DNA of 64,000 nucleotides from Escherichia phage vB_EcoS_FFH_1, in the sequence record KJ190157, one strand, 5' to 3'. The notes beneath the pieces were generated by a model. It was not told the DNA's origin, ran no database searches, and saw only the letters and a list, made by a program, of their open reading frames with translations. Both the position numbers and the translations under genes were made by a program. Positions 60,776 to 64,000 of the stretch are shown piece after piece. Position 1 is the stretch's first letter, and each line of letters opens with the position of its first letter.

Positions 60776-62698
60776 TTAGGTAAGGCGTTGAATTATAAGT
60801 TTAATATTTGGTAAGCATGCTTTCATGCCAATTATATTGCTCATAGAGGATTCTAACCAAATAGAGATATTATTATTTCCATCATTTCTCATATAGTATG
60901 TTAGAGTATAGTAACCCGTTTGACCTACGGATCCTGGCAACCCAGATACCCAGTACGGAGTTGGAGTATACCCAGCAGCCTGTAATTTACAAGCATTTAC
61001 TACAGTACCTTTAATAGTAAAAAATGGTACATATTCTCCTGCAGGTAGGGACAATATTTGGTGAAGTTTTTTATCAATAGTATTGCCACCCATTCTAAAC
61101 CTACTATCGCCATATTCAGCGCCTTTAGATAGCATTTCCGTAGGATTAAAGCAGCCAATACCTCCTGCAGACAACCATGTGTCATCTAGGAACTCCATAG
61201 TACATACAATTGCACCATTTCTGCTACTATTAAGATCTAGTCCCACGGTACCAACATGCACGGAACCATTACCCTGAAATACTATGTTACCAGATAGTAC
61301 AGTACTTCCGCTACCACCTAGAAGTCTTAAAGGTAGAAGATTTTCACTCCAAACGTCCCCATAATTACTCCCTATTTTTGGAGGATTACTAGAAACATAC
61401 CAAGATGCTGAAGGTAAAAAGTTATAAATACTAACTACATTAGTATTTAAACCACCAACGTTACCACCCTTAATACTTGGTGCGTTATTGCTTTCTGTGG
61501 TTGGTAGTCCAAATGTTGCTATGCCAGAGATCCCAGTAGAGGGGCCACCCATACTCAAGTTACACCCAACATCACGAAAATCAGCTCTGCTCCCTACATT
61601 AAAGTTTTTCTCAACAAAGTTGATAAACTTCCAAGATGTATTATTAACGTTAATACCTTTAATAATAAATTCAGTGGGGCTTAATTTTATATCATTACCT
61701 GTAAATAATCCAGCATCAATACTATAACCTGAACCATTATACACTAAGTTAGTAACATACCAGGTAATTTTAGATGGATAAATACCGAGGTGCTCACTAT
61801 ATATACCTATGGGCCCATTAGCAGCATCATTCGGATCACCCATACTTTCCCAATACGCATAGTTAGTGGGATCAGCACGTGCGAAACCTACAGAGTACTT
61901 AGGAGCCGAGGGATTGCTAGGATTAGACATAAAGTTAAGAGCCCCTGAACTCGACGCCCCATGTACAGCTCCAGCAGTGGTGTAGTTGGGCCCTTCCATA
62001 CCATAAAGAACTCTATTACAAGACCTACCACGAACATATATGGCGTTAAATCCAAAGTTTCTAGCTCCTGGATGCCTAACGTAGTCGCTAGGGATAGTTA
62101 GAGTTCCTGAATCCGGCACTACATATCCTGAACCATCCCAGGCAGATTTGTAAAGAGCGGCACCGCCTAAGTACATTGCACTAGATGCAAATCCTCTACG
62201 CCCACTAAAGGCTCCAAACATATGCTGACATCCAGTACCATCTCTAAGCTTCTGGGGGATCGTACCGCTAGTACCACTATTAAAATAGCCTACATCAAGA
62301 GATAGATCAGCACTAGCTGTTATTTGTGTTTTTAAACCACCTTGAGACATGACCTGCGGATTTATAATTCCATACGCTTTAGCTCCTACCCCCATAGACA
62401 TGCCAGATAGCATATGTCTAGAGCCATCTGAGAACTCAATTTCTGTTAGCACAACTCTATTGGGGTCATTATTATGTAGCTGTGTAATTCTACTAGGCAT
62501 CTCAGACCAGTAATAGTCACCAGCACCCTGATCCAACCTTAACCCAGTAGAATGAGTTTCCGTTATAATTACGTGCGGCATATCTGAGTGAAAGATGGTT
62601 TGGGAATCAGGGTTGATATGTTGGTTAGTATCCCCACCACTACCCCTTCGCAGTGAGAGTATAGATTTGTTATTTAGCTTACCAGCGAAAAAACTCAT
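60776..62698 (-). CDS. oad: receptor-binding tail protein (pb5-like)
   Basis: 640 aa, Gly/Ser/Asn-rich; first gene of the minus-strand late block, divergent from lipoprotein gene; size equals T5 pb5 from memory. Confidence 0.65.
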
Positions 62699-62717
62699 AA
62701 GTTCTCCAAAAATTTAG

Positions 62718-62746
62718 TTGCTTATACTGCCATAATTCTGTATAAT
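62718..62746 (+). promoter_or_regulatory. early promoter TTGCTT-N17-TATAAT for llp
   Basis: -35 62718-62723, -10 62741-62746, downstream TATTATAAATT box. Confidence 0.6.
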
Positions 62747-62777
62747 AGTATTATAAATTAAATAGAGGAGAATGTAA

Positions 62778-63011
62778 ATGAAAAAATTATTTTTAGCTCT
62801 GGCAGTGGTAATTCTTTCGGCTTGCTCTACTTTTGGGCCTAAAGATATTAAATGTGAGGCCTACTATATGCAGGATCATGTGAAATATAAGGCCAATGTT
62901 TTTGATAGGAAAGGGGATATGTTTCTGGTGTCACCAATCATGGCCTATGGATCTTTCTGGGCTCCAGTAAGCTACTTTACCGAGGGGAATACATGTGAAG
63001 GAGTTTTCTGA
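62778..63011 (+). CDS. llp: lytic-conversion lipoprotein (Llp-like), predicted receptor-blocking
   Basis: 77 aa; signal peptide with lipobox MKKLFLALAVVILSAC; TTGCTT-N17-TATAAT promoter and AGGAG SD; adjacent and divergent to receptor-binding protein gene. Confidence 0.75.
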   Translation: MKKLFLALAVVILSACSTFGPKDIKCEAYYMQDHVKYKANVFDRKGDMFLVSPIMAYGSFWAPVSYFTEGNTCEGVF

Positions 63012-63165
63012 GGAGAATCCCTCCCATAAACCCATACCACTTAGGGTGGATCCTAGGTCAAAACTAGTTCACAATGCAATTGAGGTCATTCAGAACACCA
63101 TATAAGATAAAATGTTATGACTCGTGCAATTGCTAGAATATTTCAAAAATCACAATTATAGGAGC

Positions 63166-63303
63166 ATGAAAGATATGTCAAACAAAAGAAAGAGCAGACG
63201 CGGAGAAGTGTACGAAGAGTGGATTAATATTTACGGATTTGGTTTTGTATTATTCCTAATCTTCGTAGGTTTTTGGTTAGCAGCTATGGCGGGGTGGATT
63301 TAA
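63166..63303 (+). CDS. small membrane protein (45 aa)
   Basis: Not in ORF track (too short); AGGAG SD; basic N-terminus then hydrophobic helix FGFVLFLIFVGFWLAAMAGW. Confidence 0.35.
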   Translation: MKDMSNKRKSRRGEVYEEWINIYGFGFVLFLIFVGFWLAAMAGWI

Positions 63304-63410
63304 TGGAATGGGTAATTATTGCATTACTAGGGATTGTGATTGTTGGGCAATGTATCTTAGATAATCACTTAGCTAGAATCGAAACCTTACTATCGGAGAA
63401 ATGTAAATGA
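63303..63410 (+). CDS. small membrane protein (35 aa)
   Basis: Not in ORF track; ATG overlaps upstream stop (TAATG); hydrophobic helix WVIIALLGIVIVGQCIL. Confidence 0.35.
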   Translation: MEWVIIALLGIVIVGQCILDNHLARIETLLSEKCK

Positions 63411-63598
63411 TGGAAGTAGTAGCTACACTAATAGTAATACTAGTCTGGGCAACTTTCATTGTTTCTTATAACGCGTATGTTCGCCTAAAAACTCTAGAGG
63501 CTCAGGTAAAACAACAATTTGCTCTAGAAAAATTAGTAGAACTCCAACGTTGTGATAGTACCCGTATTCTGCAAATTGAGAGGGAATTAGATGTTTAG
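63407..63598 (+). CDS. small membrane protein (63 aa)
   Basis: ATGA overlap with upstream gene; N-terminal TM helix VVATLIVILVWATFIVSY then amphipathic helix. Confidence 0.4.
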   Translation: MMEVVATLIVILVWATFIVSYNAYVRLKTLEAQVKQQFALEKLVELQRCDSTRILQIERELDV

Positions 63599-63836
63599 TA
63601 TTATAATTGCTTTTATTATCGGGGTACTTGCGGGAATTTTCGGAATGACCGCGGCAATCAACAAGCATCGTAAATATATTGTGGAAGTATCGCGGGAGAT
63701 TGCGGAAAGGGAGCGGAAGTTTGACGAGAAACGTGAGAAGTTTGAGCGGGAGTGGTCAGATGGATCTCGGGCGTCGCGGAAGAGATTTCGTGAGTTTAGA
63801 CCCGAACACCGGTTTGATGACCCTTCTATGCGCTAA
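63591..63836 (+). CDS. small membrane protein with charged C-terminal domain (81 aa)
   Basis: Overlaps upstream gene by 8 nt; N-terminal TM helix FSIIIAFIIGVLAGIFGMTAAI, Arg/Glu-rich tail. Confidence 0.4.
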   Translation: MFSIIIAFIIGVLAGIFGMTAAINKHRKYIVEVSREIAERERKFDEKREKFEREWSDGSRASRKRFREFRPEHRFDDPSMR

Positions 63837-64000
63837 TTAACTTTTTGCCAAATTTCATAAGATTACACATGAGGATGTGCTCACTGCCTCCGGCGAAAAT
63901 ACTTAGTCTGCTAACCGCCACCCCTGTTACTATTACCATGCTAACTGTTTCACCCTGCAACCATTTTAATTGCAAGGTGAAACAATTTCAACTTTAATTA

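Follow-up and report, generated by a model that had tools for sequence, protein, structure and literature searches.

The Gene Block and Its Features

The window, i.e., the whole stretch of DNA analysed here, consists of 64,000 nucleotides from Escherichia phage vB_EcoS_FFH_1 (KJ190157), which is a T5-like phage. Near the right end of the window, following the lytic-conversion gene llp, there are four consecutive, small, same-strand open reading frames, here designated orf1 to orf4 (Table 1). An earlier note on this DNA had pointed to these four, claiming one transmembrane (TM) helix for each, and indeed all are present, with one hydrophobic stretch apiece. They are, almost certainly, the orthologues of phage T5 genes T5.159, T5.160, T5.161, and T5.162. 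That is, positions 62700-64000 are 88% identical to T5 at the nucleotide level, with annotated coding sequences matching, and the four proteins are 81-89% identical in amino acids to their T5 counterparts. Each protein also matches a family of its own over the whole of the profile, these being PHROG 8596 (E 6e-31), 6369 (4e-24), 5851 (2e-33), and 6447 (5e-46).

Order, strand, overlaps, and placement between llp and the right terminal repeat all are as seen in T5. Differences from T5 are allelic only, with the window's orf3 being one Gln shorter (63 versus 64 aa), and the window's alleles are mosaic relative to those of T5. The synteny, which is llp and the receptor-binding protein (RBP) gene, then the block, and then the right terminal repeat and dmp, is kept as well across the annotations of NC_005859, X75922, and AY587007 and across 23 IMG/VR loci.

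The block is already known, that is, as annotated hypothetical T5 genes, and represents no new feature. The four ORFs made their first appearance in 1994, as orf1 to orf4 of the llp record (X75922; Decker et al. 1994), they are ORF148 to ORF151 in AY587007, and the RefSeq entries for T5.159-T5.162 each carry the remark 'contains single transmembrane domain'. The first reading of the window missed this identity with annotated genes. Among the papers searched, none has a main text that names T5.159 to T5.162, with a final topical search also empty, the papers on phages DT57C and phiR2-01 do not discuss these ORFs, and no T5-like phage is among those covered by HIDEN-SEQ. The useful products of the analysis are a corrected start for orf1, evidence that the block does not go with the receptor cassette, and a listing of the ways in which its members have been gained, lost, or disrupted in nature.

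Table 1. Features of the llp-to-terminal-repeat region, in window coordinates.
Feature	Position	Strand	Description
llp early promoter	62719..62747	+	TTGCTT-17 nt-TATAAT; 'promoter llp' of X75922 (82-110); putative early promoter T5P41 of AY587007
llp	62778..63011	+	lytic-conversion (FhuA-blocking) lipoprotein precursor, 77 aa; 97% aa identity to T5 Llp
llp-orf1 spacer	63012..63174	+	~164 nt; holds the orf1 Shine-Dalgarno (SD) motif AGGAG (63160-63164)
orf1	63175..63303	+	T5.159 orthologue; 42 aa; PHROG 8596; dN/dS 0.125
orf2	63303..63410	+	T5.160 orthologue; 35 aa; PHROG 6369; dN/dS 0.108
orf3	63407..63598	+	T5.161 orthologue; 63 aa; PHROG 5851; dN/dS 0.338
orf4	63591..63836	+	T5.162 orthologue; 81 aa; PHROG 6447 'membrane protein'; dN/dS 0.239 (codons 1-66)
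right terminal direct repeat, start	63881..64000	.	approximate; transferred from T5 position 111532 (NC_005859, AY587007; megablast)
hairpin	63946..63984	+	9 bp + 5 bp stems; RNA fold of 63837-64000, z-score -2.8

Reading Frames, Coding Status, and Selection

The orf1 product has a basic N-tail (MSNKRKSRRGEVYEEW), with its TM helix lying at the C-terminus and including an invariant WLAAMAGW segment. The other three instead begin with the TM helix. With orf2 this is followed by a short, conserved juxtamembrane segment (GQCILD.HLAR.E), while with orf3 the TM helix runs on into a coiled-coil-like helix, the single-sequence AF2 model being one helix from residues 2 to 62 (pLDDT 91). The orf4 product has its TM helix at residues 1-24, then a highly charged helix (+19/-14), and then a variable, disordered tail, with AF2 modeling a helix over residues 2-69 and the tail at low confidence. 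Within the orf4 TM helix, glycines G11, G15, and G18 are invariant and spaced as in small-xxx-small packing motifs. A view of orf2 and orf3 as paralogues is unsupported (hhalign 6.5%).

The lengths that had been put forward for these ORFs, 45, 35, 63, and 81 aa, hold for the last three, but orf1, judging from its relatives, is a 42-aa reading frame which starts at 63175 rather than at 63166. This is because the ATG at 63175 (MSNKRK...) and the GGAG found ~10 nt upstream of it are both conserved, because the PHROG 8596 profile begins there, i.e., with profile positions 1-42 aligning to residues 4-45 of the 45-aa form (63166-63303), and because RefSeq T5.159 uses the same start. The ATG at 63166 lies only 1 nt past the AGGAG motif and in relatives is found as ACG, ATT, or AAG. 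Neither the 45-aa form nor a 57-59-aa upstream GTG extension, which is ORF148 of AY587007, is conserved, and both were rejected.

The ORFs were said also to be linked by TAATG and ATGA overlaps. This is the case for orf1/orf2 (TAATG) and for orf2/orf3 (ATGA), but the orf3/orf4 junction is instead an 8-nt overlap (ATGTTTAG). With orf2, the TAATG coupling and the SD (GGGGTGGA) are conserved and, more generally, SD motifs, start codons, and overlaps are conserved over the 24 sequences compared. These stop/start overlaps would appear to couple translation across orf1-orf4.

Going by their substitution patterns, the four ORFs truly encode proteins, and purifying selection acts on them. The dN/dS values of Table 1, as obtained from 23 related loci, may be set against values of 0.5-5.6 for the same DNA in shifted frames, and synonymous divergence (pS) is 0.23-0.40, indicating that the DNA itself is not frozen. 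To the idea that these are instead chance ORFs in AT-rich DNA, or are conserved for non-coding reasons such as closeness to the terminal-repeat boundary, next to no credence can be given. The ORFs are very short, it is true, and homologues of two of them reach just ~1 TPM in RNA-seq of phage Bas33, but the selection signal is frame-specific, and it is the dN/dS values and their frame-shift controls, in particular, which refute this view. Synonymous sites vary and SD motifs and starts are conserved, as noted, while an Rfam search for known RNA families gave none above threshold, and the antisense 70-aa ORF (63456-63668) was rejected as stops break it in 16 of 27 sequences, T5 included. Conservation in relatives, which had been proposed as one check on these genes, is found both in the proteins and in their translation signals.

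Transcription of the Block

It would appear that a single transcription unit, starting from the early llp promoter, runs through the block and finishes at the hairpin found inside the terminal repeat. The llp early promoter thus probably serves the whole of the llp-to-orf4 unit. A consensus scan of the llp-orf1 interval returned no terminator-like site and no good plus-strand promoter. The best candidate for a promoter belonging to orf1-orf4 themselves, TTGCTA-18-AATTAT at 63131-63160, was rejected as it has 8 of 12 matches, its transcript would begin downstream of the SD, and the scan did not rise above chance. The spacer carries decayed remnants of a ~104-aa acidic ORF, with tblastn using the ORF of one locus (L025) finding two pieces, in different frames and with stops. 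At the other end, the hairpin has orf4 on one side and the convergent dmp gene on the other and coincides with a 'putative rho-independent terminator' of AY587007, one that a simple consensus scan missed; it likely is the terminator of the llp-to-orf4 unit.

In Bas33 RNA-seq, which is not strand-specific, the block gives TPM values of 13-462 at 20 min, and it shows no transcription when only pre-early genes can be transcribed. The ~1 TPM of the orf1 and orf2 homologues in these same data is probably a counting artefact of features of 108-129 nt, but may be real low expression. Co-transcription of the block with llp is what we infer.

Distribution and Variation among T5-like Phages

Matches to orf1 are found in 427 phage records and matches to orf4 in 440, these being T5-like phages, and 440 is also the number of records with a TerL at least 90% identical. 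An exhaustive HMM search with orf4 gave five clusters only, all T5-like, with no relatives elsewhere. Among the 23 IMG/VR loci, orf1, orf2, and orf4 are present in every one, at 75-95% amino-acid identity, and this identity is kept where pb5 is only ~30% identical and llp has been swapped for an unrelated lipoprotein. The boundary of the cassette lies ~40 nt upstream of orf1, with homology to BF23-type phages starting at ~63130. By these sequence comparisons, the block is part of the conserved backbone of T5-like phages (Markadamsvirinae), outside of the swappable receptor cassette of RBP plus llp, since it stays constant while the RBP and llp are swapped.

Within the block there nevertheless is variation. 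The variable member is orf3, which has no match in 7 of 23 loci, is truncated in another (L011), and is 44% identical in L025. Elsewhere orf4 is truncated (L019) or has a deletion inside its TM helix (L026), and orf2 occurs twice in each of L011, L015, and Bas33, i.e., an extra 51-aa ORF there is an orf2 duplicate (hhalign 95%). The block is mosaic, and recombination is seen within it. In a CRISPRi-ART screen of T5, all four genes were scored 'Not Fit', meaning knock-down without fitness cost, though the sensitivity of that screen is limited, as lys and nrdA were scored 'Not Fit' too. The block thus appears to be accessory, that is, unneeded on laboratory E. coli and with members which in nature are gained, lost, or broken.

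Membrane Insertion and a Possible Complex

Each protein has a single uncharged run of 17-27 residues, with the best 19-residue Kyte-Doolittle mean being 2.3-2.6 per protein, and the products appear to insert into the inner membrane. From the positive-inside rule, orf1 is predicted to be a tail-anchored protein whose basic N-tail is cytoplasmic, while orf3, orf4, and probably orf2 are predicted to be N-out/C-in. The most conserved charged segments of the proteins would face the cytoplasm. The four proteins, furthermore, probably pack into a small hetero-oligomer via small-xxx-small helix faces. The picture of orf1-orf4 as a membrane complex seems somewhat more probable than its absence, with the hetero-oligomer being the inferred part.

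What the Block Might Do

The complex may be viewed as a second, receptor-independent layer of protection of the phage-infected cell, one that would be co-expressed with Llp. What it would act upon, at the inner membrane, is the DNA-entry or channel step of later T5-like phages or, alternatively, resealing following the phage's own DNA transfer. With identity, membrane complex, and specific role blended, this is the best explanation overall, to which we would assign a probability of roughly 0.45. Taken separately, receptor-independent protection at the inner membrane is our best guess at a role for the block, if on balance an unlikely one. The same may be said, with greater doubt, of its most specific version, according to which a micro-protein complex unique to T5-like phages excludes later T5-like phages whatever their receptor, doing so by obstructing, at the cytoplasmic membrane, the tape-measure/DNA channel.

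In favor of protection are the small early transcription island that the block has in common with a known exclusion gene, llp, along with the mosaicism and varying copy number of the block. The restriction of orf4 to one lineage fits with a function tied to T5-type infection, and Klebsiella phage IME260 also has TM plus coiled-coil genes adjoining its RBP gene. Against protection, selection is purifying rather than diversifying and, if the predicted topology is right, then almost nothing would be exposed to the periplasm. The exclusion proteins HK97 gp15 and T4 Sp, by comparison, face the periplasm. In addition, IME260 has its similar genes but no llp-type lipoprotein, which goes against an obligatory link with llp, and searches of Pfam, NCBIfam, PADLOC, and PDB sequences with orf1-orf4 gave nothing significant. 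The argument from location of the earlier note, i.e., that a block beside llp could be a membrane-targeted module, is right as to adjacency but is weakened by the constancy of the block across llp/pb5 swaps and by the sufficiency of llp alone for exclusion.

The proteins could instead be effectors of host takeover or anti-defence, that is, micro-proteins that bind a host inner-membrane protein from its cytoplasmic face and then inhibit or redirect it. Candidates would include division proteins, transporters, proteases or LPS regulators (FtsH/LapB, for example), and abortive-infection effectors that act at the membrane. Conserved residues do fall within segments predicted to face the cytoplasm (RRGEVY of orf1, GQCILD.HLAR of orf2, and the charged helix of orf4), expression is early, PHROG 6447 is filed as 'moron, auxiliary metabolic gene and host takeover', and dispensability on a defence-poor laboratory strain is typical of genes that are conditionally needed. 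There is a match of orf4 to LapA_dom as well (PF06305, the LapA/YciS domain family), but at 21.5 bits (E 2.3e-4) it falls below the Pfam gathering threshold of 28 bits and spans no more than the TM helix plus the basic segment next to it, so that membership of orf4 in that family was rejected. PADLOC and NCBIfam are without matches. Other T5 host-takeover genes, moreover, are grouped within the pre-early and main early regions rather than next to the RBP gene. Overall, host takeover is perhaps best described as a rather improbable role for the block.

Regulation of lysis timing, as by an antiholin, a holin modulator, or an auxiliary pinholin-like protein, had been suggested too, and is quite improbable. 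In gross features orf4 is holin-like, being small, with conserved glycines in its TM helix and a highly charged C-terminus, and non-essentiality would fit with a modulatory role. What disfavors this suggestion is that the holin, L-Ala-D-Glu peptidase (endolysin), and i-/o-spanin pair of T5-like phages are found in a separate cassette, with T5 lys (T5.040) at 19.9 kb. The proteins also lack similarity to holin, antiholin, or spanin families in Pfam and PHROGs, and the soluble part of orf3, at ~40 residues and predicted to be cytoplasmic, cannot span the periplasm. A role for the block in helping Llp, i.e., in its maturation, its sorting, or its blocking of FhuA, would be consistent with adjacency and probable co-transcription. 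That view, however, is largely refuted, and can be considered very improbable indeed: llp cloned alone, with the reverse primer on the orf1 start, cuts plating >100-fold, Llp alone was found in a structural study to bind and block FhuA, and the block is unchanged where an unrelated lipoprotein replaces llp.

As to wider relevance, T5 is among the classic models of phage biology, therapeutic and biocontrol collections commonly contain T5-like phages, and ~440 deposited genomes carry the block. Should the block prove to be a receptor-independent module of exclusion or competition, then this would bear on the combining of T5-like phages of different receptors in cocktails, and it would also represent, for the field, a new kind of micro-protein membrane complex.

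Comparison with Known Systems

Closest by location are the receptor-blocking lipoproteins Llp and Cor. The llp gene is the neighbor of the block, it encodes a small envelope protein, and it presumably belongs to the same early unit. It matches PHROG 1119, Cor superinfection exclusion, at E 2.5e-19. The orf1-orf4 products, by contrast, are without lipobox and without sequence similarity to these proteins, only llp matching PHROG 1119, and are predicted to be found in the inner membrane; nor do orf1, orf2, and orf4 co-vary with RBP or receptor type.

T4 Imm, P22 SieA, and HK97 gp15 are small, early, non-essential inner-membrane exclusion proteins which act after adsorption, and the block, by analogy, might work alike. 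It differs from these in consisting of four micro-proteins, not one, and in a predicted exposure that is cytoplasmic, not periplasmic. As to homology with inner-membrane superinfection exclusion proteins, searches of PHROGs, Pfam, PADLOC, and NCBIfam with orf1-orf4 gave no hits outside of the block's own families.

Among the four, it is orf4 alone that combines the small size, at least one TM domain, and charged C-terminus of holins, but orf4 does not sit beside an endolysin gene in a lysis cassette and has no holin family match in Pfam or PHROGs. With spanins, what is shared is the TM helix plus coiled coil of orf3, with a lipoprotein gene nearby. As an i-spanin, however, orf3 has too short a coil (~40 aa soluble), one that its flanking charges predict to be cytoplasmic, and as an o-spanin the sole lipoprotein gene on hand, llp, is upstream, across the ~164-nt spacer, and encodes the FhuA blocker.

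The remaining comparison is with Klebsiella phage vB_Kpn_IME260 (Sugarlandvirus), which has 74-aa and 151-aa single-TM ORFs beside its RBP gene. There are just two genes there and, again, no llp-type lipoprotein. The 74-aa ORF is marginally orf3-like (hhalign 62%), while the 151-aa ORF was rejected as an orf4 homologue, being unrelated to it. These two ORFs nonetheless are like the block in architecture, in that a coiled or charged helix comes after a TM helix at the N-terminus, and they are like it also in place, that is, divergent from the RBP gene and before the terminal repeat, with an HNH gene then following.

Identity and layout of the block

The four small genes that follow llp, orf1 to orf4, are already known, i.e., as annotated hypothetical membrane-protein genes of phage T5, T5.159 to T5.162. 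With window positions 62700-64000 as megablast query against deposited phages, 255 records were matched, the top one being phage T5, 88% identical along the whole query. NC_005859 carries the four genes under those T5 names and notes for each that it 'contains single transmembrane domain', and the same ORFs are designated orf1 to orf4 in the llp/oad/dmp record of 1994 (X75922) and ORF148 to ORF151 in AY587007. Full-length PHROG matches are seen as well (8596, 6369, 5851, and 6447, respectively; E 6e-31 to 5e-46), all of them filed without an assigned function. Pfam, NCBIfam, PADLOC, and PDB sequences provided no match past threshold; orf4 scored 21.5 bits against LapA_dom, i.e., under the 28-bit cut-off, in an alignment spanning only its transmembrane (TM) helix and the basic stretch which follows.

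GenBank labels for the orthologues are inconsistent, ranging from 'hypothetical' and 'membrane protein' to 'tail fiber protein', 'tail assembly protein', 'receptor-blocking protein', and 'lysozyme' (e.g., among ON185584, MK972715, NC_048794, OR621298, and KY677846), with orf1 left unannotated in some records. The latter four labels look like annotation-transfer errors.

That four consecutive ORFs follow llp, as the earlier note had it, is borne out, with all found on the same strand. The note had these linked by TAATG/ATGA overlaps, which is what is seen at the orf1/orf2 (TAATG) and orf2/orf3 (ATGA) junctions, but orf3 and orf4 instead share an 8-nt overlap (ATGTTTAG). As in T5, the gene for the receptor-binding protein (RBP) as well as both terminase subunits are found upstream of the block, and dmp comes next after the start of the terminal repeat, on the opposite strand.

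Coordinates of features in the window and of endonuclease-like genes in compared loci (llp through orf4 from a listing of ORFs of at least 20 aa, region 62000-64000)
Feature	Sequence	Position	Strand	Remark
pb5/oad, receptor-binding protein	window	60776-62698	-	upstream of block, as in T5
llp early promoter	window	62719-62747	+	TTGCTT-17-TATAAT; corresponds to annotated llp promoter (X75922, AY587007)
llp	window	62778-63011	+	77-aa lipoprotein
orf1	window	63166 (or 63175) to 63303	+	
orf2	window	63303-63410	+	
orf3	window	63407-63598	+	
orf4	window	63591-63836	+	
right terminal repeat, start	window	~63881		~45 nt past orf4; matches T5
HNH/AP2-type genes	L012	4289-4828		
	L018 and L020	4243-4716		
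	L019 and L024	4206-4703		
	L023	4176-4715		
	L026	4200-4697		
	L020	3200-3781		
	L027	2777-3256		
	Bas33			bas33_0186

Coding capacity and the start of orf1

Conservation was considered across 23 T5-like loci, taken from IMG/VR with orf4 as query and with all genes mapped in them. For orf1 to orf4, read in their annotated frames, dN/dS (Nei-Gojobori, pooled) is 0.125, 0.108, 0.338, and 0.239, respectively (orf4 limited to codons 1-66), with variation falling mostly at third codon positions; shifting the frame of these alignments, in both possible ways, gives ratios of 0.5-5.6. Synonymous divergence (pS) is 0.23-0.40, so the DNA itself is free to change. Shine-Dalgarno-like motifs with the right spacing, ATG starts, and stop/start overlaps all are kept in the 24 sequences compared. 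The conservation in relatives that the earlier note had proposed checking is thus found, and as a frame-specific purifying signal. Rfam provided no family match, and a 70-aa antisense ORF is broken in 16 of 27 sequences, T5 among them.

The 45-aa version of orf1, beginning at 63166, does not hold up. The ATG there is ACG, ATT, or AAG in relatives, whereas the ATG at 63175 is conserved, as is a GGAG ~10 nt upstream of it, and the PHROG profile begins with MSNKRK, i.e., at 63175. It follows that orf1 is 42 aa, as in RefSeq. What the earlier note observed is correct, that is, given two small coordinate corrections.

Transcription

The simplest reading of the sequence is of a single early unit that would run from llp through orf4. 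Between llp and orf1 no terminator-like site and no convincing promoter were found, and the AY587007 annotation places a terminator where the sequence folds into a stable hairpin (63946-63984). The pb5/oad promoter (minus strand, TTTACA-17-TATAAT, 11/12 matches) is back-to-back and overlapping with that of llp, both lying in a 79-nt divergent intergenic region (window 62719-62778).

Partial support for a single early unit comes from the Tequintavirus Bas33, in which the block is bas33_0187 to bas33_0191. In its RNA-seq data, which are not strand-specific (20 min; PMC13250531, Dataset S01), TPM in replicates 1 and 2 are 219 and 127 for the llp analogue (bas33_0192), 162 and 137 for an orf2 paralogue (bas33_0190), 462 and 408 for orf3 (bas33_0188), and 22 and 13 for orf4 (bas33_0187). 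Under daunorubicin, with transcription confined to pre-early genes, TPM is zero for all of these genes (PMC13250531). The two shortest genes, bas33_0189 and bas33_0191 (108 and 129 nt), are at ~1 TPM with flanking genes at 130-460 (PMC13250531), which probably is read-assignment loss, the features being shorter than the 150-nt reads.

Predicted topology

Each product possesses one strongly hydrophobic stretch (best 19-residue Kyte-Doolittle mean 2.3-2.6; uncharged runs of 17-27 residues), agreeing with the single TM helix per protein that was claimed earlier. Together with the coding signals, this is the part of the earlier structural reading that stands, i.e., its description of membrane micro-proteins.

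The N-terminal tail of orf1 is basic (+5/-3 over 15 residues) and its TM helix is C-terminal, with an invariant WLAAMAGW at the end; the protein looks to be tail-anchored with its N-terminus inside the cell. With orf3 and orf4 the N-terminal flank is acidic or absent and basic residues come right after the TM helix (RLK and KHRK, respectively), which favors a predicted N-out/C-in orientation; the flanking charges of orf2 are ambiguous. AF2 models are of single long helices, residues 2-62 for orf3 (pLDDT 91) and 2-69 for orf4 (pLDDT 72), the latter followed by a disordered tail.

Invariant positions cluster in juxtamembrane or charged segments (RRGEVY in orf1, GQCILD.HLAR.E in orf2, HR.Y...RE..ERER.F.EK...FEREW.DGSR in orf4) as well as in the WLAAMAGW of orf1 and the conserved TM glycines of orf4 (G11, G15, G18). 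The small residues of these last two have the spacing of small-xxx-small motifs, by which helices typically pack tightly. That spacing, in combination with translational coupling, suggests that the products may form a small inner-membrane hetero-oligomer, one whose functional surface would be toward the cytoplasm.

Relation to llp

The block's position next to llp is as earlier described, but the link is positional rather than evolutionary. In most of the 23 loci pb5 is only ~30% identical to that of the window and llp has no homologue, with an unrelated 88-aa lipoprotein, of BF23/BtuB type, standing in for it. Orf1, orf2, and orf4 nonetheless are still 75-95% identical in those loci. Megablast matches to BF23-type phages start at query 429-438, i.e., window ~63130, and upstream alignment has homology resuming ~40 nt before orf1. 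RBP plus llp is described in the literature as a swappable functional module, and as judged from these alignments orf1 to orf4 lie just outside of it, within the conserved backbone.

A role for the four as Llp helpers is essentially excluded, both as the block is kept where llp is swapped and as llp alone is sufficient. That is, the DT57C study used a reverse primer placed on the orf1 start to amplify llp, and plating still was down >100-fold, and in a structural study Llp by itself binds and blocks FhuA, so Llp does not need orf1 to orf4.

The llp-orf1 spacer (63012-63174) is a decayed copy of a ~104-aa acidic ORF (MQDEEKSFQEPVNFELDPRTKAVHDAINEII...RAIARIYQIPHL), present in the window as two pieces in different frames, with stops. 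It is intact as a single frame only in one compared locus, L025 (2699-3013); in T5 there are stops along with a deletion of 18 aa, and L020 (3002-3312) and L021 (3508-3821) are frameshifted at residue 21. It may represent a fifth gene of the unit, one in the process of dying.

Natural variation

Seven of the 23 loci (L009, L013, L014, L020, L021, L022, L023) lack an orf3 match, possessing instead an orf2 allele which ends ...IERKLREYK/GDK and abuts orf4. In L011 (3817-3984) orf3 is a truncated form of 55 aa, and in L025 (3190-3384) it is only 44% identical, with its C-terminal ERELDV, overlapping the start of orf4, kept there. Between orf1 and orf2 there may also be an additional single-TM ORF of 51 aa (L011 and L015, 3555-3710; Bas33, L029, 1055-1210, bas33_0190), which is a tandem orf2 paralogue into which 14 residues are inserted (hhalign 95%). 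Orf4 stops after 35 aa in L019 (4001-4108) and in L026 (4046-4213) loses half of its TM helix to a 17-aa internal deletion, breaks which are consistent with a dispensable gene.

Insertions of HNH/AP2-type homing-endonuclease-like genes (157-193 aa) recur directly behind orf4, and in one case such a gene lies between llp and orf1. Where such genes sit behind orf4, its last ~15 residues are replaced (REFRPEHRFDDPSMR versus MSESGDKPVDRRSS versus short forms). The terminal-repeat edge looks like an insertion hot spot. Alleles also are mosaic: Orf1 of the window is 95-97.5% identical (nt) to L018, L015, L022, and L014 and only ~80% to L004-L007, but for orf3 and orf4 the nearest loci (93-98%) are L024, L010, L004, and L007. 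Recombination breakpoints therefore occur inside of the four-gene block.

Possible functions

What four conserved micro-proteins do is a real question, if not a surprising one, and the window sequence does not make it more tractable. No function has been assigned to them in the searchable literature, and what the earlier note made of them is only partly supported. My tentative reading, at a probability of roughly 0.30, is of receptor-independent protection or exclusion at the inner membrane. Slightly favoring this are an early transcription island in common with llp, placement adjoining the RBP locus in two lineages, restriction of the block to the T5-type lineage, and dispensability in single infections along with gain, loss, and mosaic dynamics. 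Regarding dispensability, in CRISPRi-ART on T5 the score was 'Not Fit' for T5.159, T5.160, T5.161, T5.162, and llp alike, with mean guide fitness of -3.6 to -4.1; a caveat is that lys and nrdA had this score, too, in that screen.

Alternatively, and in my view only slightly less likely, the block could encode an effector of host takeover or anti-defence whose target would be an inner-membrane protein of the host, a reading favored by conserved residues predicted to face the cytoplasm. Modulation of lysis is unlikely, as T5-like phages encode holin, L-Ala-D-Glu peptidase, and paired i-/o-spanins in another cassette, with T5 lys at 19.9 kb. The rest of the probability I leave unassigned.

Distribution and comparison with other phages

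By tblastn, 427 deposited phage records have orf1 and 440 have orf4 (residues 1-66), all of them T5-like phages (Salmonella, Escherichia, Shigella, and similar); records with a large terminase at least 90% identical to that of the window also number 440. Among 5.8 billion proteins searched, relatives all are at least 70% identical, and the sequences which carry them are fragments or contigs of phage size. With an exhaustive HMM search, 1.84 billion cluster representatives yielded five clusters, all of this T5-like group.

Demerecviridae that are more distantly related do not share this arrangement. In Vibrio phage X1 the terminase directly abuts dmp, with no RBP, llp, or block there. Klebsiella phage vB_Kpn_IME260 (KX845404.2), unlike the window, has no llp-type lipoprotein beside its RBP gene. 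It has at the equivalent position a 74-aa ORF, with TM plus coiled coil, which is marginally orf3-like (hhalign 62%). In the 1-kb unannotated stretch between this 'hypothetical protein' and the terminal repeat there is, in addition, an unannotated 151-aa ORF (L027 3244-3699, minus strand of the locus), unrelated to orf4, with an N-terminal TM, a charged helix, and a Pro/Ser-rich tail; an HNH gene follows it. Beside the RBP gene, then, it is the architecture that recurs, with the sequences themselves turning over.
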